Below, one piece after another: positions 10,938 through 29,544 of a stretch of 29,544 bases of DNA (position 1 is the stretch's first letter; each line of letters starts with the position of its first letter). The stretch is from contig CAYNNE010000001.1 of assembly GCA_964398725.1 (NCBI GenBank), positions 1 through 29,544 of the forward strand, written 5' to 3'. The notes below the pieces were generated by a model. The model was not told where the DNA came from. It saw only the letters and a program-made list of their open reading frames with translations, and searched no databases. Source of the DNA: an uncultured Candidatus Saccharibacteria bacterium (GTDB lineage Bacteria; Patescibacteriota; Minisyncoccia; Phycocordibacterales; Zambryskibacteraceae). A program made the translations under genes and the position numbers.

Positions 10938-10959
10938 CTTGATAGCCAATCTCGGCCTC

Positions 10960-11232: not shown

Positions 11233-11299
11233 TTAAACCCCATGGAAGGTGGAAATGTACATCTTGGAGTATTAAACGCGCCAAATAAAATTTAGCAAG

Positions 11300-12737: not shown

Positions 12738-12797
12738 TTAAATGAAAAGTAATATTTTTAATAAGACTAGATATTTGTAATAAAGTCAATAGTTAAT

Positions 12798-12826
12798 TTG
12801 ACATTAAATTAGCGTCGGAGTAATGT
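12798..12826 (+). promoter_or_regulatory. Probable sigma70 promoter for rny
   Basis: TTGACA (12798-12803), 17-nt spacer, TAATGT. Confidence 0.55.
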
Positions 12827-12905
12827 ACTAATGTGCCCTTAAAAAGCTGAAAATCAGAACGAAAGTAACGGTAGTTAAGCTAGAAAATCCCCTAAAAATT
12901 AAATT

Positions 12906-14435: not shown

Positions 14436-14462
14436 TTATTGAAAAAATCAAAAAGAAATTTT

Positions 14463-14498
14463 CTAGCAACTTTTTCTCTGGCAACTGACAACTTTTAA
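14463..14498. repeat. Degenerate CTRRCAA heptamer run after rny
   Basis: ctagcaa ctttttct ctggcaa ctgacaa cttttaa. Confidence 0.5.
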
Positions 14499-14536
14499 GC
14501 TATTTTGTCAATGCTTTTATCAAAAATGTGGCTTGC

Positions 14537-14564
14537 TTGCGGTCTTTTTTGATAGGTCTATAAT
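14537..14564 (+). promoter_or_regulatory. Probable promoter for HU
   Basis: TTGCGG, 16-nt spacer, TATAAT (14559-14564). Confidence 0.55.
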
Positions 14565-14634
14565 TAAGGTACCTTTAGTTCGTGTAAAACGAGCTGGGAA
14601 AGCGGGTCGTTTATAAGAAAAGTTAAATTACAAA

Positions 14635-14910
14635 ATGATGAATAAAGCATCAATCGTTGAACAAGTTCACGCAAAGATTGGAGGAACAAAAGTTTCTTCC
14701 GAGCAAGCAGTTGAAACTATGATCGACTGCATAGTAAATACTTTGAAAAAGAACGGTGAGGTTTCAATTGCAGGCCTTGGTATCTTCTCAACGAAGACTC
14801 GAGCTGCAAGACAAGCAAGAAATCCACGCACAGGAGCTGCTATTTCTGTTCCAGCAATGCGCGTACCAAAATTCCGTGCAGCTAAAGCATTGAAGGACGC
14901 AGTTAAATAA
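14635..14910 (+). CDS. hup: Histone-like DNA-binding protein HU
   Basis: MNKAS, GLGIF, RAARQARNPRTG, VPKFRAAKALKDAVK. Confidence 0.96.
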   Translation: MMNKASIVEQVHAKIGGTKVSSEQAVETMIDCIVNTLKKNGEVSIAGLGIFSTKTRAARQARNPRTGAAISVPAMRVPKFRAAKALKDAVK

Positions 14911-14977
14911 ATAAATCTCAGAAAGCGAATCCTAAAAAATTTTGCTGAGTAAAATTTAAAGGACAAGGACCCGCTTC

Positions 14978-15011
14978 AACATAAAACTCCCCTTTCGGGG
15001 AGTTTTATGTT
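14978..15011. terminator. Bidirectional terminator
   Basis: aacataaaactcccc-tttc-ggggagttttatgtt between convergent hup and the 15013 ORF. Confidence 0.85.
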
Positions 15012-15012
15012 T

Positions 15013-15795
15013 TTATTTTGGATATTTTCTTATGGAAAGAAAGTGATAATAAAATTCTTCAAACTTTTTTTGATCGGCTGGTGGAGGAGTATTGGTAAAT
15101 TCTTTAAATCTCAATGCCAAAGTTGAGCTTGTTAGTCCGTCGTACTCTTTTATTAAATCTTTGAGTTCGTTTGCAGACAGGCTCCTAAAAAACCCTGTAT
15201 TTACAACCATTTCCGCTTGTTTGTTGCCATCTGCATCAATCTTGTTCCTGTAGTTATTATCTAATATGCCTTTAATTAGCCATTCTAGCTCCTTTACCCT
15301 AGCTAATGCCTTTGGCGTCGATTGGAGTTTAATTGTCTCTATATTTTTTATATAGGAGTTTTTTTCGTTTGTAAGAGTCGCCACTTTTTCCTGTAAATCA
15401 GAAACTGTTTTTCTTAGAGATTCATTTTCTGTTTTTAGTTTATTAATTTGCGCTATTAACCCATCGTAATTTGAATCTTGTGTCAGATTTTTTGATGTGC
15501 TAATTAGTTTGCTTTTTATTTGTGAAAAAGTTGTAGTAGCTGTTGTGGTTGTAGAAAAAGCAGTAGTTGAAGTTGCAATTGGTGTACTTGTTGCTACAGC
15601 TTCAACGACAGCTTCCCTCCCGCCCGACTGAACGGCCTCAGTCGTTCGGGCGGGCTTTATCTCTTTTATTATTTTTTGTTTGTTTCTTAACTCTGGAACT
15701 ACTTTCAAATTAGTTATCCAGGAGAAAAAACTGGAGTCCGCCGAAACCAAACTCGGTATTAATATGAGGCTTAAAATTAAAATCTTAAATTTCAT
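15013..15795 (-). CDS. Secreted Thr-rich/coiled-coil hypothetical protein
   Basis: Start reassigned to ATG 15795 (MKFKILILSLILIPSLVSA, a signal peptide); the track's 19 extra codons lie in or just after tRNA-Gly. Confidence 0.75.
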   Translation of the reverse strand: MKFKILILSLILIPSLVSADSSFFSWITNLKVVPELRNKQKIIKEIKPARTTEAVQSGGREAVVEAVATSTPIATSTTAFSTTTTATTTFSQIKSKLISTSKNLTQDSNYDGLIAQINKLKTENESLRKTVSDLQEKVATLTNEKNSYIKNIETIKLQSTPKALARVKELEWLIKGILDNNYRNKIDADGNKQAEMVVNTGFFRSLSANELKDLIKEYDGLTSSTLALRFKEFTNTPPPADQKKFEEFYYHFLSIRKYPK

Positions 15796-15821
15796 AAAAA
15801 TTGTAATGATGTCAGATACGG

Positions 15822-15892
15822 TGCGGGATGGGAGAATCGAACTCCCACCCACAGTTTGGAAAACTGTTATTCTACCATTAAACTAATCCCGC
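15822..15892 (-). tRNA. tRNA-Gly(TCC)
   Basis: gcgggat ta gttt aatggta gaat a acagt tt-TCC-aa actgt gggt gggag ttcgatt ctccc atcccgc a; full cloverleaf, 71 nt, no encoded CCA. Confidence 0.95.
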
Positions 15893-15906
15893 CTAGATAA
15901 AGAATA

Positions 15907-16353
15907 CTATCTTTCTTGCTCCAACTCTTCAACTGTTTTTAAAATATACTCATACCTATATTTTTGATTTCTATTAAACACTTCGAACACCCTTAAATCA
16001 TAGCGAATCCCATTTATTGTGTTTAATTCAATTCTTAATACTGCTCTTGGTTTATGTCCCGAAAGTGGTTGCATAAATTCATCGGTATCTACTTCTTCTC
16101 CGTTAACTACTCTTCTTATGGCGTCAGTGGACATTACCTGTGTCATTCCCATAGCTATTTCCTCTAGCCCATCATTACTTACCATTCCGTATCTACCACT
16201 AAGTGTTTCAAAAATTTCTTCTTCGTTCTCAAATGCCGTGTCTTTCAAATATTTGGCCAATTCTTCTATATCTAAATCCGATGATTCATATCTGCCATTA
16301 TCGCCATGCCCCTCTGGTGGCATTATTGGATCTTTTGGTTCTTCGTGGCTCAT
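15907..16353 (-). CDS. Acidic hypothetical protein
   Basis: Open 148-codon frame from ATG 16353 with TACAAT 8 nt upstream; no recognised family. Confidence 0.6.
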   Translation of the reverse strand: MSHEEPKDPIMPPEGHGDNGRYESSDLDIEELAKYLKDTAFENEEEIFETLSGRYGMVSNDGLEEIAMGMTQVMSTDAIRRVVNGEEVDTDEFMQPLSGHKPRAVLRIELNTINGIRYDLRVFEVFNRNQKYRYEYILKTVEELEQER

Positions 16354-16371
16354 TGGGTTGAATTGTATCAA

Positions 16372-16656
16372 TTAAAACAACGCTTGTATTTCTTCTGTAG
16401 AATCGTCTTCTACAATTGGAGCAGTTCTGTTAAAACCACACGCAACGCACTGAAGTTTAATTTTTATTGGCACGCCCCCTTTTGTTTCTACTCCTATGGG
16501 CTTCATTAATCCTTTACATACCTCTTCCCTATCTCCTGGGCTTATATCCACGTGTTTAGACCACAAGCATTTAGGACAATGATTGGTATAGCCATTCCCC
16601 ATAACTTTTGCTCCGCAATTTTCACAAACAAAGTTTTCTTTTGTACGGATAAACAT
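16372..16656 (-). CDS. RNHCP-domain-like zinc-binding protein
   Basis: F.CENCG...NGYTNHCPKCLWSKHVDISPGDR...C.G.M.P...C..CG; start taken at MFIRTKE (16656). Confidence 0.85.
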   Translation of the reverse strand: MFIRTKENFVCENCGAKVMGNGYTNHCPKCLWSKHVDISPGDREEVCKGLMKPIGVETKGGVPIKIKLQCVACGFNRTAPIVEDDSTEEIQALF

Positions 16657-16740
16657 AATATTGTCTGGATTACCAGACAAACATGTCGTCGCTCAAAAAT
16701 ACTAAAGCAAGCTTTGTATTTTATTCGCTCCTAATGTTTG

Positions 16741-16811
16741 TCGGGCCGCTGGGAATCGAACCCAGCCCTAATGCTCCCAAAGCATTTATACTACCGATAT
16801 ACTACGGCCCG
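16741..16811 (-). tRNA. tRNA-Pro(TGG)
   Basis: cgggccg ta gtat atcggta gtat a aatgc tt-TGG-ga gcatt aggg ctggg ttcgatt cccag cggcccg a; C1-G72 as in bacterial tRNA-Pro. Confidence 0.95.
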
Positions 16812-16950
16812 AAGAGAGAAACTGAACGAGGGTCCGTCGGAATTTATGACGATGTGGGCCCGCGCGCTTACAGAATATAACACATAGTACTCGTATAAGA
16901 CCACAAATTTGCGTATGATGTGTTTAATCGCGGATAAGGCGATATTAGAT

Positions 16951-17022
16951 GCACCCGTAGCTCAACGGATAGAGTACCGGTCTTCGGAACCGTGGATGTG
17001 GGTTCGATTCCTGCCGGGTGCA
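16951..17022 (+). tRNA. tRNA-Arg(TCG)
   Basis: gcacccg ta gctc aacggata gagt a ccggt ct-TCG-ga accgt ggat gtggg ttcgatt cctgc cgggtgc a; A20 present. Confidence 0.93.
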
Positions 17023-17081
17023 CAATAAGAAGTGGGGGTTTTTATTTTTGAGACATTCATAATATAATCACAGCTTGAGTT

Positions 17082-17152
17082 GCGGCTATGGTTTAGTGGT
17101 AGAACACGTCCTTGCCAAGGATGAGATGGGAGTCCGATTCTCCCTAGCCGCA
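17082..17152 (+). tRNA. tRNA-Gly(GCC)
   Basis: gcggcta tg gttt agtggta gaac a cgtcc tt-GCC-aa ggatg agat gggag tccgatt ctccc tagccgc a. Confidence 0.93.
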
Positions 17153-17315
17153 CAAAATTAGAGGTACTGGATGTTAGAATGTTTTGTGAGAAGTATGAAA
17201 ATAGTTTTGTCCGATTTTGGTCCTATAAGAAAATGAGTACTTTTTATCCCCTATCAAAAGAATGGCTCAACAACAAAGAAACTCTGCAATATATTTTCCA
17301 AAAAGGAATAATCAG

Positions 17316-17324
17316 TGTGGATAA
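17316..17324 (-). promoter_or_regulatory. Perfect DnaA box (TTATCCACA)
   Basis: tgtggataa in the AT-rich gap between tRNA-Gly and yraN. Confidence 0.55.
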
Positions 17325-17421
17325 GCTTGGGGACATGTGTATTAAAGACATTGATTGTCTTATAGCTTTATGTTCTAAAAGGGCTATAACTAGCCATATC
17401 GCTAAAAGTAGATACCAACAA

Positions 17422-17437
17422 TGTTTCATGTGAAACA
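17422..17437. other. parS-like site (1 mismatch)
   Basis: TGTTTCATGTGAAACA versus consensus TGTTTCACGTGAAACA. Confidence 0.8.
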
Positions 17438-17438
17438 T

Positions 17439-17822
17439 ATGCCTACAAAGAACAAAAACATCGGTAATAATGGCGAAAACCTAGTAGAAAGGTTTCTTGT
17501 GAAACAGGGCTATACCATTATTGGAAAGAACTATCTAAAGCCATGGGGAGAAATAGATATTGTGGCTAAAAATAAGGGTATTATTCACTTTATAGAGGTA
17601 AAGGCTAAGGAAATAACCTTAAACAACCAAAAATATGGCGATAAATATAGACCAGAAGACCATATGCACTCTTGGAAAGTTAGAAGGTTTAAAAGAATCA
17701 TAGAAACTTGGCTTATGGAAAAAGACTACGACGGAGAGTGGCAAATAGATGCGGCCATAGCCTATGTTTCACCTGAAACAAGTTTGGAATCAGTAGAAAT
17801 GTTCTGGGATATAGTTCTATAA
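17439..17822 (+). CDS. yraN: YraN family PD-(D/E)xK endonuclease
   Basis: G..GE.....FL...GY.I...N.....GEIDIVA......FIEVK; start taken at ATG 17439. Confidence 0.9.
   Translation: MPTKNKNIGNNGENLVERFLVKQGYTIIGKNYLKPWGEIDIVAKNKGIIHFIEVKAKEITLNNQKYGDKYRPEDHMHSWKVRRFKRIIETWLMEKDYDGEWQIDAAIAYVSPETSLESVEMFWDIVL
17491..17506. other. parS-like site (3 mismatches)
   Basis: GGTTTCTTGTGAAACA within yraN. Confidence 0.45.
17765..17780. other. parS-like site (1 mismatch)
   Basis: TGTTTCACCTGAAACA within yraN. Confidence 0.8.
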
Positions 17823-17851
17823 AGTCAGAATGCGCTAGAATATAAAAAGAA

Positions 17852-19318
17852 ATGGCAACCTTTCCAATACCAAAACCAGTTTCACATGTAACAAAAACCC
17901 TTATTGATGGGGGTTTTCAAGCGTATTTGGTTGGTGGATGTGTGAGAGATCTCTTTTTGGGGGAGAAACCCAAAGACTGGGATGTGGCAACAAATGCTAA
18001 GCCGGAAGAGATAATTTCTTTATTTACAAAGACTTTTTATGAAAATAGCTTTGGAACCGTAAGTGTTGTTCAGGAGGATGTGGAAGATGAGAGTTTAAAG
18101 GTAATAGAAATAACGCCATATAGAAAAGAGGGTACCTACACAGACAAAAGACGCCCAGATTCTGTGTCTTTTTCTAAAAAAATAGAAGACGATCTCTCTC
18201 GCAGAGATTTTACTATTAACGCCCTTGCATATTCTGTTGAAAATGATGAGCTTTTGGACCTGTTTGATGGTAGAAAAGACCTTATTTCTGGCCACATTAG
18301 AGCTGTTGGAGACCCAAAAGAGCGTTTTAGTGAGGATGCCTTGCGAATACTTCGCGGAATCCGCCTACATTCAGAACTTGGATTTGGTGTAGATAAAGAA
18401 ACTTTGGCTGGAATGAGTGAAAAGGTTGAGCTTTTAAGTTTTATTTCAAAAGAAAGAATAAGGGATGAATTTACAAGAATAATCAACTCTCCAAACCCCT
18501 CTCTGGGGCTTATTTTGGCTGATAGGGTAGGTGCACTCGAGTATATGCTCCCAGAACTCATAGAGGCAAAAGACATAGCTCAAAACCAAGCGCATTCGTT
18601 TGACGTATGGACTCATTTATTAAAATCTTTAGACCATGCTGCACATAAGAAGTACCAGTTTCACGTGAGACTAGCAGCTCTTCTTCACGATATAGGGAAA
18701 CCAGCTTCTAGAAGGTGGTCTGACGAAAAAAAGGATTGGACCTTTTACGGACACGAGGTTATTGGTGCAAAAATGGCTAAGAATATAATGGAAAGACTAC
18801 ATTTTTCACGTGAAACGACTAAAAAAGTGGTTAGTTTAATCCGTTGGCATATGTTTTTTTCTGATACGGAACAAATAACTCTTTCAGCCGTAAGGAGGAT
18901 GGTCTCAAATGTTGGAAAGGACCTTGTCGACGACCTTATGTCTGTTCGTCTTTGCGACAGAATAGGCACGGGCAGACCAAAAGAAAGTCCTTACCGCCTT
19001 CGTAAGTATCAATCAATGATTGAGGAAGTCATGCGAGACCCTATTTCTGTAGGTATGCTTGCTATAGATGGCAATGATTTAATAAAAATTGGCGAGAAAG
19101 CTGGACCACGCCTTGGCTATATACTTCACGCGCTTTTAAATGATGTTTTAGAGGAACCCAAAGCAAATACAAAAGAAAATTTATTAGAGAAAGCTAAAAA
19201 AATGGCTTTATTAAGCGATATTGAGCTAAAAAAGCTTGGAGAAATCGGGAAAATAGCAAAAGAACAAGAAGAGGGGGAGGAATTGGGGAAAATAAGAGCT
19301 AAATATGGGGTTAAATAG
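17852..19318 (+). CDS. cca: Class II tRNA nucleotidyltransferase (CCA-adding) with HD domain
   Basis: YLVGGCVRD, DWDVAT, loop EGTYTDKRRP, EDDLSRRDFTINA, FSEDALRILR, HDIGKP. Confidence 0.92.
   Translation: MATFPIPKPVSHVTKTLIDGGFQAYLVGGCVRDLFLGEKPKDWDVATNAKPEEIISLFTKTFYENSFGTVSVVQEDVEDESLKVIEITPYRKEGTYTDKRRPDSVSFSKKIEDDLSRRDFTINALAYSVENDELLDLFDGRKDLISGHIRAVGDPKERFSEDALRILRGIRLHSELGFGVDKETLAGMSEKVELLSFISKERIRDEFTRIINSPNPSLGLILADRVGALEYMLPELIEAKDIAQNQAHSFDVWTHLLKSLDHAAHKKYQFHVRLAALLHDIGKPASRRWSDEKKDWTFYGHEVIGAKMAKNIMERLHFSRETTKKVVSLIRWHMFFSDTEQITLSAVRRMVSNVGKDLVDDLMSVRLCDRIGTGRPKESPYRLRKYQSMIEEVMRDPISVGMLAIDGNDLIKIGEKAGPRLGYILHALLNDVLEEPKANTKENLLEKAKKMALLSDIELKKLGEIGKIAKEQEEGEELGKIRAKYGVK
17878..17893. 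other. parS-like site (3 mismatches)
   Basis: AGTTTCACATGTAACA within cca. Confidence 0.4.
18657..18672. other. parS-like site (3 mismatches, still near-palindromic)
   Basis: AGTTTCACGTGAGACT within cca. Confidence 0.5.
18802..18817. other. parS-like site (2 mismatches)
   Basis: TTTTTCACGTGAAACG within cca. Confidence 0.6.
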
Positions 19319-19394
19319 TCGCTCGTGTGTTTATTTTAAAAGCGAGCGACATAAGGTCACCAATGCTTTTAAAATAAACACACTCACTTTAAAT
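19319..19394 (+). repeat. Family A palindromic element, copy 2 (after cca stop)
   Basis: Perfect 18-bp arms 19325-19342 and 19366-19383; 23-nt loop cgagcgacataaggtcaccaatg. Confidence 0.9.
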
Positions 19395-19412
19395 ATAAAA
19401 ATGGAAATAGGG

Positions 19413-19451
19413 AATAAATAAAGAACACCCCGACGTGTGTCTGGGGTGTTC
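19413..19451 (-). terminator. Minus-strand intrinsic terminator
   Basis: gaacacccc / ggggtgttc stem (19423-19451) followed on the minus strand by tttatttatt. Confidence 0.7.
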
Positions 19452-19610
19452 GAGAGCGCAAATGACTGAGGAGCTCAACGCTGCTACCTTTTTACAATTT
19501 ATATTTTGTCGTAGTGTTGGTTGGTGGTCTACCTACTGCCAGTTGCATAAACAACTATTGCCTAACGGTCCCCAAGAGGAGAAAAGGGTCTCAGTTCTTG
19601 CTAGGCATCT
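19415..19610 (-). ncRNA. Candidate structured non-coding RNA (unassigned)
   Basis: End-to-end pairing 19458-19470 with 19590-19601, internal hairpin agttg/caact (19541-19556), and a terminator at 19423-19451; no recognised family. Confidence 0.25.
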
Positions 19611-19654
19611 AAAAGACATTGTATATCTAAAAGACAATTTGTATATAGAGATTA

Positions 19655-19663
19655 TGTGGATAA
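19655..19663 (-). promoter_or_regulatory. Perfect DnaA box (TTATCCACA)
   Basis: tgtggataa in the cca-exoA gap, 10 nt after an imperfect tandem repeat (19607-19644). Confidence 0.5.
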
Positions 19664-19705
19664 CTTTGTCCTTTAAATTAAGCGCTTTTAAATGGCTCGG
19701 TTGAG

Positions 19706-20476
19706 CTATATTTTTATATCTAATTCAATTGGGCAATGGTCTGAACCATAAATATCTTTCCAGATAAAACTTTTATTCACATCTTTTATTAACTCTTTGT
19801 TTACAAAAAAATAATCAATTCTCCAGCCAGCATTTCTGTCTCTGGCAAAAGATTTTTGATCCCACCAAGTGTATGCATTTATTGTCTCTGGATTTAAATG
19901 TCTGAAGGTGTCCACATATCCCTTTTCAATAACTTTGTCCATCCATGCTCTTTCAACTGGCAAAAAGCCAACATGTTCTGAGTTTTCTTTTGGTCTTGCT
20001 ATGTCTATTTCTGTGTGTGCCACATTTACATCCCCACAAAAAATGACTTTTTTGTGCTTTTTTCTTAATTTTTCAGCAAATTTTAGAAATTCTTCATAAA
20101 AACCAAGTTTATACTCCAGTCTCTCTGGAGCACCTCCGCCGTTAGGGAAGTAGCAATTTATAAGTACAAAGTCTTTATATACGACAGCAATCAAACGGCC
20201 TTCTTGGTCGTATTTCTCCACACCCATCCCATATAAAACCTCTTCGGGCTTCTCTTTTGCATATATAGCAACACCGCTATAACCCTTTTTTTCCTTAGGC
20301 CAATCAAAAAATGAATAATAACCTTGTGGGGTTGCAATCTCTGGTGGAAGTTGGTCTATTGTCGCCTTTACTTCTTGCAAACAAATAAAATTTGGGCTTT
20401 GTGTGAAAATCCAATCTAGGTTTCCTGACTTTAGGGTGGAGCGGATACCATTTAGGTTCCAAGAAATTATGCGCAT
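19706..20476 (-). CDS. xth: Exodeoxyribonuclease III / AP endonuclease
   Basis: SWNLNGIR, CLQEVK, YSGVA, EGR, YFPNG, GDVNVAH, YTWW, GWRIDYF, SDHCP. Confidence 0.96.
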   Translation of the reverse strand: MRIISWNLNGIRSTLKSGNLDWIFTQSPNFICLQEVKATIDQLPPEIATPQGYYSFFDWPKEKKGYSGVAIYAKEKPEEVLYGMGVEKYDQEGRLIAVVYKDFVLINCYFPNGGGAPERLEYKLGFYEEFLKFAEKLRKKHKKVIFCGDVNVAHTEIDIARPKENSEHVGFLPVERAWMDKVIEKGYVDTFRHLNPETINAYTWWDQKSFARDRNAGWRIDYFFVNKELIKDVNKSFIWKDIYGSDHCPIELDIKI

Positions 20477-20492
20477 ATGGAGTAGTTTACAT

Positions 20493-20520
20493 TTGCTAGT
20501 TGCTAGTTGCTAGTTGCTTG
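20493..20520. repeat. TTGCTAG heptamer array (3 perfect copies plus 1 variant)
   Basis: ttgctag ttgctag ttgctag ttgcttg, adjacent to family A copy 3. Confidence 0.85.
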
Positions 20521-20599
20521 AACTTGGAGCAAGAGTGCTCATTTAAAAAGCATTGGTGTCCTTATGTCGCTCGCTTTTTAAATGAGCACTCTTGCGAAC
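20517..20599 (-). repeat. Family A palindromic element, copy 3 (after Xer recombinase stop)
   Basis: Perfect 22-bp arms 20529-20550 and 20574-20595; loop reads cgagcgacataaggacaccaatg on the minus strand (23 nt). Confidence 0.9.
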
Positions 20600-21981: not shown

Positions 21982-22584
21982 ATGTCAATAATTAAACATT
22001 CTGAACAGCGAGTCGCTGTTCTTATAGATACACAAAACCTTTATCACAGCGCAAAAAACCTTTATCACTCAAAAGTAAACTTCAAAAACGTTTTGGAGGA
22101 AGCGGTTGCTGGAAGGGTATTGGTGCGAGCCACTGCATATGTTATTACCACAGAGTCTGGCGACGAAAAGGCTTTTTTCGAAGCGCTTGAAAAAGCTGGT
22201 ATTGAAACAAAAACAAAAAACTTACAAATATTTTCCGGTGGTGCAAAAAAGGCAGACTGGGATGTTGGCCTCGCAATCGACGCTGTAAAAATAGCCTCAA
22301 AAATAGATGCTGTTGTTATTGTGTCTGGTGACGGAGATTTTATTCCACTCATTGAATATATGCGCTCTCATGGTGTACAGGCAGAAGCGGCAGCTTTTGG
22401 AAGATCCACATCAGCAAAACTGATTGAAGCTGTGGACGACTTTATAGACTTGGATGATAATCCAAAAAGATTCTTACTGCGCGCGCCAGTTAATCGTCAA
22501 AGAAGAAACACTGGTAAACCTACAAACGGAAACTCTCCAGAAGTAATTTCTGAAACTCCTGAAGAAACCAACATGTTAGAATAG
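21982..22584 (+). CDS. NYN-domain (LabA/DUF88, PIN-like) protein
   Basis: VLIDTQNL, KADWDVGLAID, IVSGDGDF, DDFIDL. Confidence 0.9.
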   Translation: MSIIKHSEQRVAVLIDTQNLYHSAKNLYHSKVNFKNVLEEAVAGRVLVRATAYVITTESGDEKAFFEALEKAGIETKTKNLQIFSGGAKKADWDVGLAIDAVKIASKIDAVVIVSGDGDFIPLIEYMRSHGVQAEAAAFGRSTSAKLIEAVDDFIDLDDNPKRFLLRAPVNRQRRNTGKPTNGNSPEVISETPEETNMLE

Positions 22585-22590
22585 TTTTGA

Positions 22591-22710
22591 CCCCAATAGA
22601 AACATCGGTCGTGGGTTAAAAATCTATTTCAATGAACGAAAATCAATCAAAGGATGAGAATTTAAATCCTATAAATAATTCTGGAGAACCACGACCTGTT
22701 TCTAACGGGG
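22591..22710. repeat. Family B bipartite inverted repeat, copy 1, spanning ATG 22632
   Basis: Left ccccaatagaaacatcggtcgtgggtt (22591-22617); right aaccacgacctgtttctaacgggg (22687-22710). Confidence 0.8.
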
Positions 22711-24050
22711 CAAGTGGGCCTGTAAAGGGTTTAGATTTTGAAGATGACACCGTACAAGCTCTTCTTGCAAAAGCAAGAAAGGAGTCAGAAATGCGTGTCC
22801 AAATGAACTCTATTAATAAGGGTGTTCTTACAAATGTTCCACCAGGTGTAAGGGGTGAACTTTCAAATGGAAGCGCATTTAAACAGCCCCAAAATCCTTC
22901 TACTGAAGGGATAACGCCTCCCCAAGAGACACATTTTTCTGCAACACCAATTGAAGTGCAGACCGACTCTTCACAGGAGCAACAAGCTGTTTCACAAACT
23001 CCAGAAGAAACAAAAGATAAATCTCTTTTAAAGAATCTTAGAACTTATCAGGGGGACATTGCAGAAGCGTTAAAAAATCAAAATGCTTCCAGCATAAGCA
23101 TTGCTATGGCAGAGAGGAGGAGGGCAGAAAAAAGACCAGTTGTTACACAAACGCCCGCTCAAAAACAAAAAGAAAAAAGAAATTTATGGCTAGCTTTGGG
23201 CTCAGCAACTTTTTTGGTAATTGGTTTGGCCATTCTTGGTGGCCTTTATTATGTGCACGTAGAAAACTTACCAGTACCTGTTGCTGAGGCGCCAAAAACA
23301 ATTATAAGTTTTGATAAAGAAACAGAAATTTTGTTTCAAGGACTTACCAGAGATAAGTTTATGTCGATTGTTTATGACATAAAAAACACAATTGATTTAC
23401 CTGCAAACCAAATACAATATTTGCACATTGTTAAAAGAGCAACATCAACTCTTGAAAATAAAATTACCCAAGACATAACTGCAAATGATTTCTTTTCTCT
23501 TATAAAAACAAAAGCGGGCTCATCGGTTACAAGGTCTCTAGCAAAAACTTTTATGCTCGGGATATATCAGGGCAAAAAAACTGATGTATTTATGTTGGTT
23601 GGATTAACATCTTACGAAAATGCTTTTGATGGAATATTTAGATGGGAAGATTTTATGTGGGATGACTTGGGTGCACTATTTTCTTCAATCACGCACGCAA
23701 CCCCAACTTATATGCCAATAATTAATCAGATGGGAACCACTACGGCTTCTTCTACAAATTTAATTTCATCCACTAGTCCAAAAACTGCAACCTCTACTGC
23801 AACAACAAGCGCGCCCTTGCTCGACTCAAACAAAGTGGTCACTACTCCAGTTGCAAGTGTGCTCGTACTTACTAAAGAAACTTTTATAGATAAAATAATT
23901 TCAAATAAAGATGCTCGCATTCTCCAAAGTCAGTTTGGGGAAAGTGTTTTGGTGTATGGGTTTGTAACAAAGAACCTTTTACTCATAACCTCTTCAGAAG
24001 AATCGTTTAAGGCCATTCTCGATAGAGTATTTGCTTCCCAAGCTCAATAA
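22632..24050 (+). CDS. Single-pass membrane hypothetical protein
   Basis: Low-complexity N-terminus, TM helix LWLALGSATFLVIGLAILGGLYYV, Thr/Ser-rich linker in the C-terminal part. Confidence 0.8.
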   Translation: MNENQSKDENLNPINNSGEPRPVSNGASGPVKGLDFEDDTVQALLAKARKESEMRVQMNSINKGVLTNVPPGVRGELSNGSAFKQPQNPSTEGITPPQETHFSATPIEVQTDSSQEQQAVSQTPEETKDKSLLKNLRTYQGDIAEALKNQNASSISIAMAERRRAEKRPVVTQTPAQKQKEKRNLWLALGSATFLVIGLAILGGLYYVHVENLPVPVAEAPKTIISFDKETEILFQGLTRDKFMSIVYDIKNTIDLPANQIQYLHIVKRATSTLENKITQDITANDFFSLIKTKAGSSVTRSLAKTFMLGIYQGKKTDVFMLVGLTSYENAFDGIFRWEDFMWDDLGALFSSITHATPTYMPIINQMGTTTASSTNLISSTSPKTATSTATTSAPLLDSNKVVTTPVASVLVLTKETFIDKIISNKDARILQSQFGESVLVYGFVTKNLLLITSSEESFKAILDRVFASQAQ

Positions 24051-24077
24051 ATTATATTTTTGGTATAATATGCCGAT

Positions 24078-24437
24078 ATGAATAAAAACCTTATAGAAAA
24101 ATTTGAGAAATCCCTTTTAGAAGAGAAGGCTCTTTTGGAAAAAGAGTTGTCTGAAGTCGCAAAAAGAAACCCCAGCAACCCAACAGATTGGGTTCCAACT
24201 ACTGGAGATAAAGACCAATCAATGGCAGATGAAAATGTAACGGCAGACTCTTTTGAAAATCTCGAAAATAATATGGGAGTTACAACCAATCTTGAGAATA
24301 GACTTAATGATGTAAATACTGCATTAGAAAAAATAAAAAATGGTAATTACGGAATTTGTGAAAAGGGGGAAGAGGAAATAGAGCAAGATAGACTGGAAGT
24401 GAATCCAGCAGCAAGAACTTGTAAGGCACATATGTAA
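24078..24437 (+). CDS. DksA/TraR C4-zinc-finger family protein (degenerate Zn site)
   Basis: Coiled coil then ALEKIKNGNYGICEKGEEEIEQDRLEVNPAARTCKAH. Confidence 0.85.
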   Translation: MNKNLIEKFEKSLLEEKALLEKELSEVAKRNPSNPTDWVPTTGDKDQSMADENVTADSFENLENNMGVTTNLENRLNDVNTALEKIKNGNYGICEKGEEEIEQDRLEVNPAARTCKAHM

Positions 24438-24463
24438 TTTTTTTGGATTAATCCAAAAAAATT
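24436..24463. repeat. Perfect 28-bp palindrome at the DksA-like stop codon
   Basis: aatttttttggatt|aatccaaaaaaatt. Confidence 0.8.
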
Positions 24464-24503
24464 TCTGCCACTAACAGATAAACCATGCGCTATAATTTTA
24501 TTT

Positions 24504-26027
24504 ATGGCATTTGCGAAAGTACACACAGCACAAACAAATCTACTTTCAGGCAATTTAATTGATGTTGAAATAGACCTTTCTAGGGGCTTACACTCTTTTT
24601 CAATCGTTGGTTTACCCGATAAAGCAACAGAAGAAGCTAAGGATAGGGTGTCGGCTGCCATCAAAAATTCTGGTTTCACATCACCAAAACAACGAAACCA
24701 AAAGATAGTAATCGCTTTGGCACCAGCGGAAATAAAAAAGGAGGGGTCTGGGTTTGATGTGGCTATGGCCGTTGGATATTTAATGGCAACAGAAGAGTTG
24801 GAGGGAAATATTTCAGAGACAATTTTTATGGGTGAACTATCGCTTGATGGAGTTTTAAGGCCCGTGCGTGGAATAATTTCAATTACACAAATTGCTCGCA
24901 ATAATGGCTTTAAAGAAATCATTGTTCCTTTTGAAAACAGAATTGAAGCCGCTCTTATTGATGGAATTAATGTTCTTCCAGCCAGAACTTTTACAGATGT
25001 AATAAATCACATTAACGGTGAAACAATACCTCCTCAACCAAAAACATTAATTGAAGCAACTCCTGAAGAAAATGAAATCACGTTTGACGATATTGTTGGA
25101 CAAGAAAGCGCAAAGAGAGCTCTCACAATAGCGGCCGCAGGGAAACATAATATTGGTTTATTCGGCCCTCCCGGGACAGGAAAAACAATGCTGGCAAAAG
25201 CATTTAAAGGAATTCTTCCTCCGCTATCACACGAAGAAATTCTTGAGACAACTAGCATTCATTCTATTTCTGGAACTTTAAAAAAACCATATTTGACCGA
25301 AGCTCCGTTTCGTTCACCGCATCACACCTCGTCTTATGTTGCACTCGTCGGTGGCGGAGCAACTCCAAAACCGGGCGAAATAACTTTGGCTCACAAAGGT
25401 GTTTTATTTTTAGATGAATTCGCAGAGTTTGAAACGAGAGTGCTAGAGGCCCTGCGCGAACCATTGGAAGAAAAAAGAGTTTCTGTTTCTCGCGCAAAAG
25501 GTAGCGCAATTTTTCCTGCTAATTTTATTTTAGTGGCCGCACTAAATCCTTGTCCATGTGGCAACCGCGGATTTAAAGGACCACCATGTATTTGTTCTCC
25601 TGTGCAATTATTAAAATACGAAAGAAAAATTTCTGGACCAATTTTAGACAGAATTGATATGTGGATTTCTGTTCCAAGAATTGATCACGAAAAACTTCTC
25701 TCTGAAAAAAACACGCGGGAGAATAATCGTATTAGAGAAAAAGTTTTAGAGGCGCGAGCAATACAAGCAAAAAGATTTGTTAAAAATAAATCTAAATTGA
25801 ATGGAGATATCTCTGTAAAAGAATTGGTTAATTTAATAAAAATTTCAGCGGAGGTTAAAAGTGTTTTGGATGAAGCGGCAAAAATATTAAATTTATCTCC
25901 ACGCGCTTATCACAAAGTTGTAAAACTAGCTCGCACAATTGCAGATTTAGAGGGGGGTGAAGAAATTAAAAAAGAAAATCTTCTGGAAGCACTTTCATAC
26001 AGACCACCAAAAAATACGCTCGCATAA
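24504..26027 (+). CDS. comM: ComM/YifB Mg-chelatase-like AAA+ helicase
   Basis: IVGLPD, LAPAEIKKEGSGFDVA, GELSLDG, GPPGTGKTMLA, FRSPHH, GEITLAHKGVLFLDE, AALNPCPCG, SGPILDRID, RAYHKVVKLARTIADL. Confidence 0.95.
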   Translation: MAFAKVHTAQTNLLSGNLIDVEIDLSRGLHSFSIVGLPDKATEEAKDRVSAAIKNSGFTSPKQRNQKIVIALAPAEIKKEGSGFDVAMAVGYLMATEELEGNISETIFMGELSLDGVLRPVRGIISITQIARNNGFKEIIVPFENRIEAALIDGINVLPARTFTDVINHINGETIPPQPKTLIEATPEENEITFDDIVGQESAKRALTIAAAGKHNIGLFGPPGTGKTMLAKAFKGILPPLSHEEILETTSIHSISGTLKKPYLTEAPFRSPHHTSSYVALVGGGATPKPGEITLAHKGVLFLDEFAEFETRVLEALREPLEEKRVSVSRAKGSAIFPANFILVAALNPCPCGNRGFKGPPCICSPVQLLKYERKISGPILDRIDMWISVPRIDHEKLLSEKNTRENNRIREKVLEARAIQAKRFVKNKSKLNGDISVKELVNLIKISAEVKSVLDEAAKILNLSPRAYHKVVKLARTIADLEGGEEIKKENLLEALSYRPPKNTLA

Positions 26028-26064
26028 ATAATTTGAAACCTGTCGTATACTAATGGGCTAGCCA

Positions 26065-26161
26065 GAACTTAGAAGTGAGTTTTTGTTTTCGCCGTTCGTC
26101 TCGGAAGTTTTTTAGCATGGTAAATCAATGCGTGAACGCCGAAAACAAAAATGAACGAACT
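26065..26161 (-). repeat. Family A palindromic element, divergent copy 4 (after LysM-M23 stop)
   Basis: Arms 26080-26097 and 26134-26151 (18 bp, 1 mismatch); same flanks TAA-AGTTCG... and ...TCACTT..AAGTT; 36-nt loop. Confidence 0.75.
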
Positions 26162-27127
26162 TTAAAAGGGATTCTTAGCTCCACGAACTTCAAAGTGCAC
26201 ATGCGCTCCGGTTGTTTTTCCAGTTAAACCAACATGGCCAATCGTTTGTCCGCGTTCCACCTTATCTCCAACAGAAACGGTGTTGCTTGAATTGTGTGAA
26301 TACAAAGTTTGGGTACCATTATCATGCTGAATAACAATGTAGTTTCCATATCCTCCATTCCAACCTCCAGTTCTAGAGATGATAACAGTACCAGGAGCAG
26401 CAGCGGAGATAGGGGTTCCCACCGGAGCACCAAAATCAACTCCATTGTGTCCGTGTAAGCCTTGAGTTTTTCTGCCAGATATTGGTCTCAAATAGTACCC
26501 AACCACTACTTGTTGTTGAGATTCAACAAATCTTACGGGTGTTCCACTATTCACCGAGCCCATTTCACCGTCTGGGACAATAACAATATCTCCTATGCTT
26601 AACTTTGTATCCTTAGATATATCGTTGTAAGCCAAAATATCTTCTAGGCTAGCTTTGTAAGATTTTGCTATTGTTGCCACGGTATCGCCCTTCTTAACCA
26701 CATGTCTTACTCCAGAAATAGGCAAAATGGTGAGTGTTTGGCCCTCCTTTAAAGTATTAGTGGTTAAATTATTGGTCCATCTAATAGTATTTACTGAAAC
26801 ATTAAACATTTTGGCGATTGTAGATAATGTGTCTCCCTTTCTCACTATATATATAGAAATCTGATCGGATGATGGTTTATCTTTTATGTTTTCCGCCAAA
26901 CCGCCCGCTGGGGAGTCTTGGGGAACCAAAGCGTCATTGTCTACTAAAATTTCTGCTCCTCCCATTGCTAGGTCTTGGTTTGAATTAAGCGCCGCCTGAA
27001 GAAGGGGGATATTTTGTGAATTATAGATTTTTGGTAAGTCCTTATTGCTTTTAAAAACTCCGCTAAAAAAATCCGTTATTCCTGCATAAACTGGGCTTAT
27101 GGGCAAAAGCACAAAAACAGAAGGCAA
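26162..27127 (-). CDS. LysM-repeat M23 family peptidase (cell-wall hydrolase)
   Basis: Two LysM repeats (YIVRKGDTLSTIA, HVVKKGDTVATIA); M23 HNGVD and YSH and HVHFEV motifs. Start codon uncertain. Confidence 0.93.
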   Translation of the reverse strand: MPSVFVLLPISPVYAGITDFFSGVFKSNKDLPKIYNSQNIPLLQAALNSNQDLAMGGAEILVDNDALVPQDSPAGGLAENIKDKPSSDQISIYIVRKGDTLSTIAKMFNVSVNTIRWTNNLTTNTLKEGQTLTILPISGVRHVVKKGDTVATIAKSYKASLEDILAYNDISKDTKLSIGDIVIVPDGEMGSVNSGTPVRFVESQQQVVVGYYLRPISGRKTQGLHGHNGVDFGAPVGTPISAAAPGTVIISRTGGWNGGYGNYIVIQHDNGTQTLYSHNSSNTVSVGDKVERGQTIGHVGLTGKTTGAHVHFEVRGAKNPF

Positions 27128-27402
27128 AACTAAAAGAGCCCATACAAGGAAGCGTAAAAGCCGAGACGTATTTTTCCGACCAGCCTTTTGGGGGTCAGAT
27201 TGTTTATGGGATGAAGAAATAAAGTCTAAATTAAGTTGTAATTCCGCTTTTCTTTCGTTTCAGTATCCGGATTTCCTGAGACCACAATTATACTCCTTGG
27301 GGGGGGTATTTTCAACCAAAATCACAATATTACAACCCCCCATAATTCAATAATATGGCTAAAACAATAGCTATTTTGAGATAGTGGTATAGTATGTGGA
27401 CA

Positions 27403-29340
27403 ATGCTAAATCTAAACGAACCGCAAAAAGAGGCCGTAGAGACCCTCAATGGCCCCCTACTTATACTGGCTGGAGCTGGGGCTGGCAAAACCAAGACAAT
27501 AACGGAAAGAATCTCTAACTTAATTAAGCATGGGGTCCCTGCAGACAAGATTCTGGCTATCACTTTCACAAACAAAGCTGCTAAAGAAATGCGCGAGAGA
27601 ATTTATTCCAAACTCGGAGAAAAAGCGCCTCGTTCTTTTGAGGCATATGGCGCTTTTGGGGTTCCCTTTATATCCACCTTTCACTCTTTATGTGTTTTTA
27701 TTTTGCGACAAGAATACCAAACGGCAAACATATCAAAAAACTTCAAAATTTTTGATAAAAGCGATCAAAAATCGGCTATCAAAAAAGCAATGGAGAGGGT
27801 TGGTATAAATCCTAAAGAAAATGAGCCTGGAAAAATTTCTTCCGTTATATCAAGAATGAAAAATGATTTTTTAAATCCAGAAGAAGCTTTGGCAAAATCT
27901 CACAGTGCTATTTATGAATTAGCAGGAAGAGTTTACGGGGAATACCAAAGAGTTTTAACAGAAGAGAAGGCCCTAGATTTTGATGATTTGCTTTTCAAGA
28001 CTGCTACTTTGCTAAAAAAACATCCTTTGATTTTAAAAAAATACAGAGAAATGTGGCTTTATATACACATAGATGAATACCAAGATACAAATGAAGTTCA
28101 ATATGAATTAGCCAAGATGCTTGTTTCAGCAAATAAAAATATATGTGTTGTTGGAGACGCCGACCAAAATATCTATTCTTGGAGAGGAGCAAGTTTAAAA
28201 CACATTTTGCAATTTGAAAAAGATTATCCTGAAGCAAAAGTAGTTGTGTTAGAAGAAAATTACCGCTCAACAAAAAGAATTTTGGAAACTGCAAACTCAA
28301 TAATATCCAAAAATAATCTTAGAAAAGAAAAAAACCTCTTCACTAAAAACAAAGACGGCGAGCTCATTGGACTCCTTTCTGCATACGATGAAAACACTGA
28401 AGCAATGTTTGTCGCAGAAAAATGTATTGAGTTAATAGGAGGGGGAACGCCAGAGGAAGAAATTGCCGTTCTTTACAGAGCAAACTTTCAATCAAGACCA
28501 CTCGAGGAAGCCTTGTTACATAACTCAATTAAATACGAATTGGTTGGCACAAAGTTTTTTGAGAGAGAAGAAATAAAACATGCTGTTTCTTATTTAAGAT
28601 TGCTACTTGATGAATCACAAAGCGATATTGGACGGGTCGTAAACATACCAACCCGTGGTTTAGGAAAGGTTTCTGTATTAAAAATTTTATCCGGCAATGA
28701 AAATGATTTGTCTCCTTCTGCTAAAAAATCGTGGGGTGAGTTTAAAAAAATTATAGCTGATGGAAAAACTTTTCTGCAAAATCACACACCAAAAGAAACT
28801 CTGGAGCATATGTTAAACATTTCTGGACTCACAAATTATTATGAAGAGGGTGCAAGAAAGGGTTTTGAAGAAGACGAAGAAAGGCTATACAACTTGCGCG
28901 AATTGGTAAACCTCTCATCAAGATTTAATGGCGCAGGCGCTGATGCTTTGGGAATTTTTTTGGCTGAAATTGCCCTACAAACAAGCGAAGAGGTTGCTGA
29001 TGGAAGTGGAGTAAAACTTATGACTGTTCATGCTGCAAAAGGCCTTGAATTTTCTTATGTTTTTATCGTAGGACTTGAAGAAGGTTTGTTTCCTCATGAA
29101 AAAATGTTTGAGGAAAATAATACTGAAGAAGAGAGGGAGGAGGAAAGGAGGCTTTTTTATGTCGCCATTACTCGTGCAAAAGAAAAACTTTTCTTAACAT
29201 GGGCGCAAACTAGATTGGTATTTGGCTCGCGCGAAATAAATATACCTTCTTCATTTTTACTAGATGTCCCAGAAGAACATTTAGAAAATGTTGAATCTGA
29301 GTGGGGTGGAAGAAAATCGTTAATGAACATAGAATTCTAA
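27403..29340 (+). CDS. pcrA: UvrD/PcrA superfamily 1 helicase
   Basis: LNEPQ, AGAGAGKT, AITFTNKAA, STFH, DEYQD, VGDADQNIYSWRGA, NYRST, MTVHAAKGLEF, EERRLFYVAITRA; start taken at ATG 27403 (27394 possible). Confidence 0.97.
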   Translation: MLNLNEPQKEAVETLNGPLLILAGAGAGKTKTITERISNLIKHGVPADKILAITFTNKAAKEMRERIYSKLGEKAPRSFEAYGAFGVPFISTFHSLCVFILRQEYQTANISKNFKIFDKSDQKSAIKKAMERVGINPKENEPGKISSVISRMKNDFLNPEEALAKSHSAIYELAGRVYGEYQRVLTEEKALDFDDLLFKTATLLKKHPLILKKYREMWLYIHIDEYQDTNEVQYELAKMLVSANKNICVVGDADQNIYSWRGASLKHILQFEKDYPEAKVVVLEENYRSTKRILETANSIISKNNLRKEKNLFTKNKDGELIGLLSAYDENTEAMFVAEKCIELIGGGTPEEEIAVLYRANFQSRPLEEALLHNSIKYELVGTKFFEREEIKHAVSYLRLLLDESQSDIGRVVNIPTRGLGKVSVLKILSGNENDLSPSAKKSWGEFKKIIADGKTFLQNHTPKETLEHMLNISGLTNYYEEGARKGFEEDEERLYNLRELVNLSSRFNGAGADALGIFLAEIALQTSEEVADGSGVKLMTVHAAKGLEFSYVFIVGLEEGLFPHEKMFEENNTEEEREEERRLFYVAITRAKEKLFLTWAQTRLVFGSREINIPSSFLLDVPEEHLENVESEWGGRKSLMNIEF

Positions 29341-29460
29341 TCCCGAACGAAACCGCGGTCACGGTTTCTGGTGGTAAGCTAGAGTCTAGCTACTGAAATA
29401 TGAAAAATGAATCAAAACTCCAAAAAAATAATAGGGGACCGCGACCTGTTTCGTACGGGA
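29341..29460. repeat. Family B bipartite inverted repeat, copy 2, at the pcrA-rsmA junction
   Basis: Left tcccgaacgaaaccgcggtcacggt (29341-29365); right accgcgacctgtttcgtacggga (29438-29460). Confidence 0.8.
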
Positions 29461-29544
29461 TGGGACCAAAAAAACAATTTGGACAAAATTTTTTAACTCA
29501 ACCAAAAATCGCACAGGATATTGTGGACGCTGGTAGGTTATCTA
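29400..29544 (+). CDS. rsmA: 16S rRNA m6,2A dimethyltransferase RsmA/KsgA, 5' fragment
   Basis: Hand translation MKNESKLQKNNRGPRPVSYGMGPKKQFGQNFLTQPKIAQDIV contains the KsgA N-terminal KK.FGQNFL motif; true start is 29400 or in-frame ATG 29460. Confidence 0.8.
   Translation, partial: MKNESKLQKNNRGPRPVSYGMGPKKQFGQNFLTQPKIAQDIVDAGRLS

Follow-up and report, generated by a model that had tools for sequence, protein, structure and literature searches.

The closest described system, compared here by description, is that of the Ssn nucleases and their SRM hairpins. SsnA is a 94 aa single-domain GIY-YIG ssDNA nuclease with NTS/SRM hairpin repeats, its gene stands in an IS-like NTS-ssnA-NTS layout, and Ssn is described as a modulator of transformation, not as a mobiliser of its repeats (Chenal et al., 2025; PMC11893778). 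The element family reported here, two copies of which lie in the window (the whole 29,544-nt stretch of DNA that was analysed), shares with it a single-domain GIY-YIG protein of ~90 aa, a nuclease gene bracketed by a hairpin repeat that is also dispersed genome-wide, and a repeat core reading TCCCG...CGGGA (NTS core ATTCCCGCG...CGCGGGAAT). In contrast, NTS/SRM repeats are ~30-nt hairpins clustered around genes and are not reported as 110-280 nt units duplicating their targets on start codons; the text of PMC11893778 mentions neither Patescibacteria nor start codons. The Ssn family is CDD cd10448 (GIY-YIG_unchar_3), whereas the likeness drawn here rests on PF01541, size, and layout. Ssn cleavage of single-stranded DNA is site-specific and occurs beside a hairpin, an activity for which the element's nuclease is, by analogy, a candidate.

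Correia repeats (CREE/NEMIS, Neisseria), ERIC, and RUP resemble the element in being small, non-coding, and multicopy, with long terminal inverted repeats and target duplication. Correia repeats duplicate TA and are found in both orientations upstream of genes, whereas the element has a 4-nt duplication, is always in sense orientation, sits on and rebuilds the start codon, and has as its partner a GIY-YIG gene instead of a DDE transposase. Both are gene-adjacent and, judging from its size and position, the element is presumably also co-transcribed as an mRNA hairpin. Correia repeats are cut by RNase III according to a MITE review whose taxon survey does not include Patescibacteria and in which the words "start codon" are absent (PMC10969869).

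Rickettsia palindromic elements (RPEs) are mobile palindromes of ~100-150 bp that join host proteins in a reduced genome (PMC10969869). The analogy with RPEs drawn in an earlier note on this DNA is a loose one: here too a mobile palindrome enters proteins, but RPEs insert in frame within ORFs, the whole of each being translated into a conserved peptide, whereas the element sits on start codons and contributes, in some cases, a new N-terminus from its right half alone; the likeness is one of description. Translational coupling requires overlaps or very short distances (PMC10666635), and in the element either ORFs overlap by ATGA or a stop precedes the next ATG by 4 nt, and a short ORF crosses the strand sequestering the start, as in upstream-ORF melting. 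By this analogy, the coupling device would arrive with a mobile element rather than evolve in place. A literature search found no paper describing the element family.

Structure of the repeats in the window and genome

The two inverted-repeat structures described in the earlier note were both found at the positions it gave (Table 1), with left arms 6 nt past the NYN stop codon (TAG, 22582-22584) and 0 nt past that of pcrA. The compensatory differences it listed between them (CCCC/GGGG vs TCCC/GGGA; TA/TA vs AC/GT) are real and are joined by another (GGTCGT/ACGACC vs GGTCAC/GCGACC); the common A.A mismatch falls at the sixth pair, and the reported 2-nt bulge after GAAAC is an asymmetric internal loop of 3 nt vs 1 nt in both copies. 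Fold z-scores of the two copies are -4.6 and -5.1. Copy 1 scores 86 bits with model R1, and the downstream half of its probable duplication (22711-22714, CAAG) appears decayed when set against the empty site of the sister species. The last base of copy 2 is the A of the rsmA ATG at 29460-29462.

Table 1. Element copies and neighbouring features in the window
Feature	Position	Strand	Remarks
NYN-domain gene	21982..22584	+	upstream of copy 1; PF01936, 122.6 bits
TTGA	22587..22590	+	upstream half of the probable 4-nt target duplication of copy 1, inferred from the G004 empty site
Element copy 1, 120 nt	22591..22710	+	CCCC...GGGG end variant; between NYN-domain and membrane-protein genes
Left arm, copy 1	22591..22614	+	P1 + internal loop + P2; pairs with 22689-22710
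Membrane-protein ORF	22632..24050	+	sole in-frame start, ATG 22632, inside copy 1
Right arm, copy 1	22689..22710	+	reads EPRPVSNG
pcrA-like helicase gene	27394..29340	+	stop TAA 29338-29340, 0 nt from copy 2
Element copy 2, 120 nt	29341..29460	+	between pcrA and rsmA; 110 bits
Left arm, copy 2	29341..29364	+	adjoins pcrA stop codon
Interior in-frame ATG, copy 2	29400..29402	+	could give RsmA 20 extra residues
Right arm, copy 2	29439..29460	+	PRPVSYG in fusion frame
rsmA 5' end	29460..29544	+	from the ancestral start codon, by ortholog starts; gene cut by the window end

The window's genome (G000; 578 kb, 95% complete) gave 14 matches to the right-arm pattern vs 1 for the reversed control, and contains 14 clean copies of a 110-124 nt palindrome plus ~6 that are diverged or short. 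Terminal inverted repeats with arms of 22-24 nt form a hairpin of ~22 bp, consisting of P1 (13-14 bp), a CGC/T internal loop that is nearly invariant across copies, and P2 (6-8 bp). Over the 14 copies in the genome, pairing holds in 89.9% of cells and double changes occur at 10 pairs, which none of 500 shuffles matched; arm complementarity is maintained by compensatory changes, in keeping with the selection on structure that had been proposed. In orthologous copies of G000 and its sister species G004, the arms are 267/276 (97%) identical and the interiors 89%, against ~76-90% for most coding flanks, so the arms are kept better than the sequence of neighbouring genes. RNAalifold chose an alternative P2 (CCGCGG with CCGCG), but the compensatory changes of copies C1_22591, C8, and C13 fit the GGTCGC/GCGACC register alone, so that pairing was rejected.

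The hairpin folds equally well from either strand. In the cross-genome copy set, where the right arm is fixed by the search pattern, the excess of A.C over G.U comes from three positions atop P2. No conserved fold of the element interior was found, and the 12 loci holding the element gave no Rfam match at E <= 1; the only nearby match was a sub-threshold one to n00280 within the pcrA coding sequence. Short copies contain micro-ORFs of ~20 codons only and no transposase gene. An internal promoter is unsupported, TATAAT-like words being spread as AT-rich sequence predicts. On inspection of the sequence, K-turn, tRNA-like, hammerhead, retron, and bridge-RNA explanations were set aside.

Insertion at start codons

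Copies were collected from many Patescibacteria, giving 103 whose shared descent means that counts over them overstate independence. TG directly follows 94 of the 103, so that the last A of the element, joined to the duplicated TG, rebuilds an ATG, and 92 of these 94 ATGs open a same-strand ORF of at least 60 aa. The insertion-site logo is A-T-G-R-A. The commonest flanking direct repeat is 4 nt (57/103 copies), often TGAA or TGGA, and its upstream half often retains the TGA stop of the previous gene, or else a stop codon adjoins the left arm; stop and start codons thus lie at the two feet of the stem. The element is always sense-oriented relative to the downstream gene. Those non-ATG copies that were traced lie within the first 4-7 codons of a gene, as at codon 6/7 of gltX, and the downstream genes are functionally unrelated (ligA, gltX, rplD, rsmA, and others). 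Target duplication, ATG rebuilding, strict gene co-orientation, and the nuclease-carrying full-length relatives are absent from the earlier note.

Its proposal of a mobile palindromic element is borne out by empty sites, target duplications, and the many copies. Filled and empty states differ at seven sites among congeners. The copy 1 site is empty in G004 (TAGTTTTGATGGACC); copy 2 is shared with G004, and its site is empty in G002 and G005; the rplD site is empty in G001; the gltX sites are empty in G003 and G005, with TTAA present there once; and three copies are private to G004, the matching G000 sites being empty. The element inserts as DNA, most often duplicating a 4-nt target. Its occurrence is patchy, in 29/61 relatives and 46/301 genomes of the order (0 control matches). 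A phylum-wide covariance-model search under strict filters found one other genome only, viral contigs gave 0 matches to the right arm, and none of the classical transposases DDE_Tnp_1, rve, and Y1_Tnp was found in the 95% complete G000.

Nuclease-carrying full-length relatives

Elements of 271-283 nt in G000 and its relatives have the same outer 12-13 nt ends, occupy the same start-codon sites, and carry a single gene, for an 84-90 aa single-domain GIY-YIG nuclease. G000 has five small GIY-YIG ORFs (80-91 aa; PF01541, 42.7-60.9 bits, cut-off 22.6), and two 276-nt copies in this genome are bounded by element ends and have one base difference between them over the stretch read. The same architecture with an intact ORF is present in G004, G016, G054, G007, G049, and G014, and also in G050, from which an intact ORF was not recovered; nuclease-carrying copies across the relatives mostly have duplicated ATG-containing flanks. 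The hairpin repeat flanks the nuclease gene on both sides, the flanks pairing together as element ends that read TCCCGT(TAG/ACG/ATG)A.., and in canonical TCCCG copies, including both in G000, the nuclease ORF reads across the right end and has the TGA of GGGATGA as its stop codon. Short copy C9 matches the autonomous ends of G000 at 12/13 positions on each arm; for the commonest short-copy end variants, GTTAG and GTACG, G000 has no exactly end-matched autonomous copy. Only the GIY-YIG search revealed the long forms, none having been found as distant arm pairs in 8-kb loci. An NCBIfam search with the small GIY-YIG protein returned nothing specific, and among solved structures the UPF0213 proteins 1ZG2 and 1YWL come nearest.

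All 11 genomes with at least four copies have a small GIY-YIG gene, and the 11 genomes without one have 0-1 weak pattern matches, a co-occurrence that is weak by itself because the gene is present in 50/61 relatives. The 271-283 nt elements are likely the autonomous partners of the short copies. The latter resemble MITEs in that they are small, lack a transposase gene, have terminal inverted repeats, show target duplication and site polymorphism, and have a same-ended, likely autonomous relative; both window repeats very probably belong, as non-autonomous (MITE-like) copies, to a mobile-element family of Patescibacteria with ends TCCCGT...ACGGGA. From architecture and co-occurrence we infer the means of movement: the GIY-YIG nuclease would mobilise short and full-length forms in trans and, by analogy with Ssn nucleases, probably recognises the element ends as a folded single strand. 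To our knowledge, GIY-YIG nucleases are not known transposases and have no identified strand-joining activity.

Translation across the element and alternative explanations

Peptides can be read from both right arms as had been noted (MNENQSKDENLNPINNSGEPRPVSNG... from 22632; MKNESKLQKNNRGPRPVSYG-MGPKKQFGQNFL from 29400). PRPVS(N/Y)G is not ancestral protein sequence: RsmA orthologs in G001-G005 all begin M-x-P-K-K-x-x-G-Q-N-F-L at ATG 29460, the ancestral start that rsmA keeps at the end of copy 2, and in G004, where the rsmA copy has a 1-nt indel, another ATG 7 nt further on supplies the in-frame interior ATG. As a general product of the family the peptide fails, the fusion frame occurring in 14/103 copies vs 16.7 expected by chance. 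The element does enter coding sequence, taking over the 5' end of the CDS in the membrane-protein gene and at codon 6/7 of gltX. The first 26 residues of the membrane protein are encoded by copy 1, and the next ATG comes only after a conserved block (LDFEDDTVQALLAKARKE); where orthologs have their native ATG, this gene reads AGT, a decay that leaves 22632, in the element, as the only in-frame start.

No upstream ORF reads through the element, since stops lie in the entering frame. An ORF ending at the right-arm TAA is present in 47/103 copies vs 16.4 expected, SD-like motifs peak at element positions 30-34 and ATGs at 35-49, and in eight copies an exact ATGA overlap links the short ORF upstream to the interior one. 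It is plausible that the hairpin gates translation initiation, as had been suggested. The hairpin would bury the host ATG, and copies would survive only if ribosomes arrive through the right arm, either from an internal SD-like motif and ATG that open a short ORF whose TAA stop precedes the host ATG by 4 nt, or from an in-frame interior ATG that gives an N-terminal extension, as the PRPVS(N/Y)G peptide of the window copies may be. This relay cannot account for everything, because in ~40% of copies no ORF traverses the right arm.

The hairpin might instead be mainly a host regulatory RNA, a translational gate or a processing site for RNase III or another enzyme, on the start codons of dispersed genes, with mobility accounting only for its spread (exaptation). 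Orthologous arms that are more conserved than flanking genes, the nearly invariant CGC/T loop, the sense orientation of all copies, and very stable hairpins with stop and start codons at their feet speak for such a role. The gene set is functionally incoherent, however, sites are not conserved even inside a genus, there is no Rfam match, and the same ends bracket a nuclease gene, so that mobility machinery can explain end conservation; we consider this account unlikely, if the most serious of the alternatives. Strict sense orientation would also suit excision of the element from RNA in the manner of an intron, or ribosome hopping between the duplicated codons, either of which would restore the native protein. 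Direct repeats around a stable hairpin are formally like take-off and landing sites, and deleting the gltX copy with one repeat would restore MPNNINPIVR... Efficient removal would permit insertion anywhere in genes, yet 92/103 copies are on start codons; an element of 110-124 nt falls short of group I or II intron size and has no match among ribozyme families, and the decay of the membrane gene's native ATG is expected only if the element stays, all of which makes removal or hopping highly improbable.

That the element is no transposon but a single-strand recombination site, either like integron attC or exploiting Xer, is equally far-fetched. attC sites span 57-141 nt, a range that includes the element, which also has an imperfect hairpin, conserved unpaired bases, a variable loop, and a position between ORFs. 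Against this, the core boxes RYYYAAC ... GTTRRRY (in that order; R''/R') are absent, the element having GTT 5' and AAC 3'; the flanking genes have housekeeping roles and keep their synteny, as rplC-rplD do, with no cassette context; and duplications vary by site, as expected of staggered cuts and not of a shared core. Within the preferred reading of a mobile element, a broader claim is made tentatively, as a possibility somewhat less probable than not: that the family is an undescribed class of prokaryotic transposable element, with a ~280 bp autonomous form that encodes an 84-90 aa GIY-YIG nuclease and nothing else, the enzyme acting on ends folded as single strands, with a specific preference for start codons, and with a built-in translational relay (SD-like motif, short ORF, and stop beside the rebuilt ATG), which may rewire the initiation of essential genes across Patescibacteria without host death.

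The nuclease-hairpin pair could widen the Ssn toolbox of sequence-specific ssDNA nucleases. Gene callers will misplace starts at these sites, by appending PRPVS-type peptides or by overlooking the true start. Start codons occupied by the elements include those of essential genes (ligA, gltX, rplD, rsmA), in ~0.6-Mb genomes, raising the question of how translation begins beside a hairpin of -40 kcal/mol. If the reading is true, few known self-contained mobile elements would be as small as the autonomous form, at ~280 bp and 84-90 codons, and the family would represent a transposon driven by a GIY-YIG nuclease, a class from which no bacterial transposase has been established.

Structure and genomic copies of the element

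The two palindromes that the earlier note had reported, with covarying arms, at two gene junctions of the window are real, and both coordinates, the folds and genome-wide covariation were confirmed (see table). Each unit has a 24-nt left arm, an A-rich variable interior of ~75 nt, and a complementary 22-nt right arm; the paired arms form an outer helix of 13-14 bp and an inner helix of 6-8 bp, with an asymmetric internal loop in which CGC (ATC in copy 1) lies opposite a single T. Folding z-scores against shuffled sequences are -4.6 and -5.1, and folding strength is approximately equal on both strands. Compensatory differences between the two stems and an A.A mismatch at the sixth pair of both are present as described, and the 2-nt bulge proposed there corresponds to the net 2-nt difference of the internal loop. 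A T.T or A.A mismatch recurs at pair 6 of the outer helix in many copies (GTACG/GTATG end variants) and in the nuclease-carrying (autonomous) element of the same genome, and the contig 22 copy has T.T in this genome (G000) and A.A in its sister species (G004). In two loci of other genomes (L046, ~1290-1408; L069, ~7000-7144), a GC-rich short palindrome (CCTGCC...GGCAGG) is nested in the internal loop of the left arm.

The G000 assembly (578 kb, 38% GC, 95% completeness; the window is contig 1) has 14 matches to the right-arm pattern vs 1 for the reversed control. Fourteen clean copies of 110-124 nt were extracted, and a covariance model built from them detected about six further forms, diverged or short (~60 nt), so the additional copies that the earlier note proposed to search for exist genome-wide. 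Across the 14 copies, 89.9% of cells are paired and 10 of 22 pairs show both-sided changes, a covariation approached by 0 of 500 shuffles and by no slid register. Six copies are common to G000 and G004; their arms are identical at 267 of 276 positions and their interiors are 89% identical, their coding flanks being mostly about 76-90% identical, and features peculiar to individual copies, the A.A mismatch among them, are inherited. The left arm of the contig 34 copy looks to have been converted to the variant of another copy. The element had no match in Rfam. Within the coding region of pcrA (window 29110-29209), the Rfam entry n00280 scores 43.7 bits, short of its threshold of 65.2; this match is probably conserved helicase coding sequence. 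The stop-codon-adjacent palindromes termed Family A (window 12656-20599 and 26065-26161) may represent another mobile hairpin family.

Coordinates of short and GIY-YIG-carrying elements in G000
Feature	Location	Strand	Length	Context or ends
Element copy 1	window 22591-22710	+	120 nt	NYN gene / membrane-protein gene junction
Element copy 2	window 29341-29460	+	120 nt	pcrA / rsmA junction
GIY-YIG element (L171)	contig 8, ~839-1114		276 nt	TCCCGTATGAAAT...ATTTCATTCGGGA ends
GIY-YIG element (L172/L175)	contig 14, ~10870-11145		276 nt	TCCCGTATGAAAT...ATTTCATTCGGGA ends
GIY-YIG copy (L170)	contig 3, ~16490-16773			CCCCCACACTAAACT ends
Short copy	contig 4, 12892-13014			ends match L170
Short copy	contig 8, 2153-2275
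Short copy	contig 14, 12495-12618			gltX
Short copy	contig 22, 6751-6872			rplD
Small GIY-YIG ORF (L173)	contig 21, 2663-2902			adjoins tRNA gene

Distribution and insertion at start codons

The right-arm pattern is present in 29 of 61 relatives and, within the order, in 46 of 301 genomes and 37 of 190 genera (control matches, 0); a strictly filtered search of 150 genomes from across the phylum found the element in one other genome, and no viral contig searched matched the pattern. Scanning a single genome for each species yielded >100 loci, nearly all from Patescibacteria MAGs labeled Nomura-, Zambryski-, Taylor-, Buchanan- or Tagabacteria, or Paceibacterota. The distribution is patchy.

Filled and empty sites among genomes of the same genus, together with the element-encoded start of the membrane protein, uphold the core idea of a mobile palindrome reaching into coding starts. 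The pcrA-rsmA junction is occupied in G000 and G004 and compact in G002 and G005, the NYN/membrane-gene junction is empty in G001-G004, and the rplC-rplD junction is empty in G001. At gltX, ATTAA is single in G003 and G005 and found on both sides of the element in G000, where the copy overlies the murG TAA stop and interrupts gltX at codon 6/7; the G004 copy at this site (contig 4, 36671-36770) reads as 100 withheld N between two ATTAATCC flanks. For three copies exclusive to G004, the matching G000 sites are empty and ATGAA or ATGAG is read once. The G001 pcrA-rsmA junction (contig 18, ~11290-11450, L023) contains a different, 155-nt palindromic element with a TGAA repeat; it shares the TCCCG...CGGGA ends but not the inner arms, and looks like an independent insertion at one hot site. 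Two loci (L115, ~4453-4600; L086, ~1781-1982) contain tandem elements with one ATGAA in common, so a rebuilt site can be hit again.

Landing sites were tabulated for 103 distinct long copies, and their consensus is A-T-G-R-A. TG directly follows the element in 94 of these, so that its terminal A makes an ATG, and 92 of the 94 rebuilt ATGs start a same-strand ORF of at least 60 aa (median, 208); none of the 103 lies on a start codon in the opposite orientation. A direct repeat of 4 nt surrounds TCCC...GGGA in 57 copies, one of 5 nt in 8 and one of 3 nt in 12; 22 copies have none, and in these the left arm is often directly preceded by a stop codon. Removal of the element at the RNA level is opposed by the traced non-ATG sites (TTAA in gltX; TTCA after codon 4 in L063), which also fall within the first few codons. 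Genes downstream of G000 copies include ligA, gltX, rplD, rsmA, an FtsX-like permease, MYG1, a methyltransferase and a glycosyltransferase, and those upstream include dnaN, secA, murG, rplC, pcrA and the NYN gene; no functional theme was found among these neighbors.

Elements carrying a GIY-YIG nuclease

G000 contains five small GIY-YIG ORFs, and searches of this genome for DDE_Tnp_1, rve and Y1 transposases found none. The two 276-nt elements, which differ by one base over the stretch read, each have as their sole gene an 86-90 aa GIY-YIG ORF that extends through the right end and stops at the TGA of GGGATGA. One occupies the start ATG of a glycosyltransferase gene and is flanked by a TGAG duplication, and the other separates the stop of an FtsW-like gene from the ATG of murG. 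The contig 8 element and the short copy on that contig bracket one glycosyltransferase gene. The ends of the contig 3 copy constitute a second end family, whose GIY-YIG copy immediately precedes an RNase III-like gene and which has a copy lacking the nuclease gene on contig 4. A second copy of TCCGCCCGTA, the 5' end of the tRNA, lies upstream of the contig 21 ORF, as though the unit had inserted at the first bases of the tRNA gene. Units of 276-283 nt whose ends match at 11-13 of 13 positions and which carry the same nuclease gene occur in G004, G016, G054, G007, G049 and G014; G050 has a 271-nt unit with 13/13 matching ends, from which the scan recovered no intact nuclease ORF. Duplicated ATG-containing flanks surround most of these units.

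The solved proteins closest to these nucleases are UPF0213. Ssn proteins are 94-aa single-domain GIY-YIG nucleases that cut ssDNA beside their own dispersed hairpin repeats, which often bracket the Ssn genes, an arrangement its authors call IS-like (PMC11893778). The Ssn repeat cores share TCCCG...CGGGA with the element ends.

Start codons, added peptides and a candidate relay

In all RsmA orthologs compared, the protein starts with M-x-P-K-K-x-x-G-Q-N-F-L from the ATG located at the end of the right arm (29460), so PRPVSYG is not ancestral sequence. The in-frame interior ATG 29400 is retained in the element, and in the G004 rsmA copy a 1-nt indel is compensated via a different ATG 7 nt later, which keeps an interior in-frame start. 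In the membrane gene, the native start (ATG-GAC-CCT in orthologs) reads AGT-GGG-CCT in G000 and the next ATG comes only after the conserved block LDFEDDTVQALLAKARKE, so ATG 22632 inside the element is the only in-frame start, and residues 1-26, including GEPRPVSNG, are element-encoded. An interior ATG lies in frame in 8 of the 12 G000 copies abutting gene starts; among the 103 copies from all genomes, the fusion frame is not enriched (14 observed vs 16.7 expected). The interior ATG region of the gltX copy, ACAATGCCCAAACAAT, mimics the native-start flank ACAATGCCCAACAAT, and that of the rplD copy, ATGGAAACA, mimics the native start ATGGAAACA; these resemblances seem too close for chance.

An ORF ending ...TATCF at the right-arm TAA, 4 nt before the host ATG, is present in 47 of 103 copies vs 16.4 expected from shuffled interiors. 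The peptides vary in sequence and length (19-26 aa), so it is the open frame that persists and not the peptide. SD-like GGGA/GGAG motifs peak at positions 30-34 and ATGs at 35-49. In 78 copies, a short ORF starting at the upstream duplicate ATG crosses the left arm, and in 8 copies the TGA of this ORF and the interior ATG overlap as ATGA. Such a chain of short ORFs could unwind both arms and hand ribosomes to the buried start. This relay would not be the full answer because the ORF through the right arm is absent in about 40% of copies.

Start-codon-seeking elements in Patescibacteria are not described in PMC11893778, a 2024 review of prokaryotic MITEs (PMC10969869), or the literature searched. 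The hairpin may gate translation, and the GIY-YIG nuclease may mobilize the element by recognizing its ends as a folded single strand; the element itself is best classified as non-autonomous, within a family of mobile hairpins associated with GIY-YIG nucleases.
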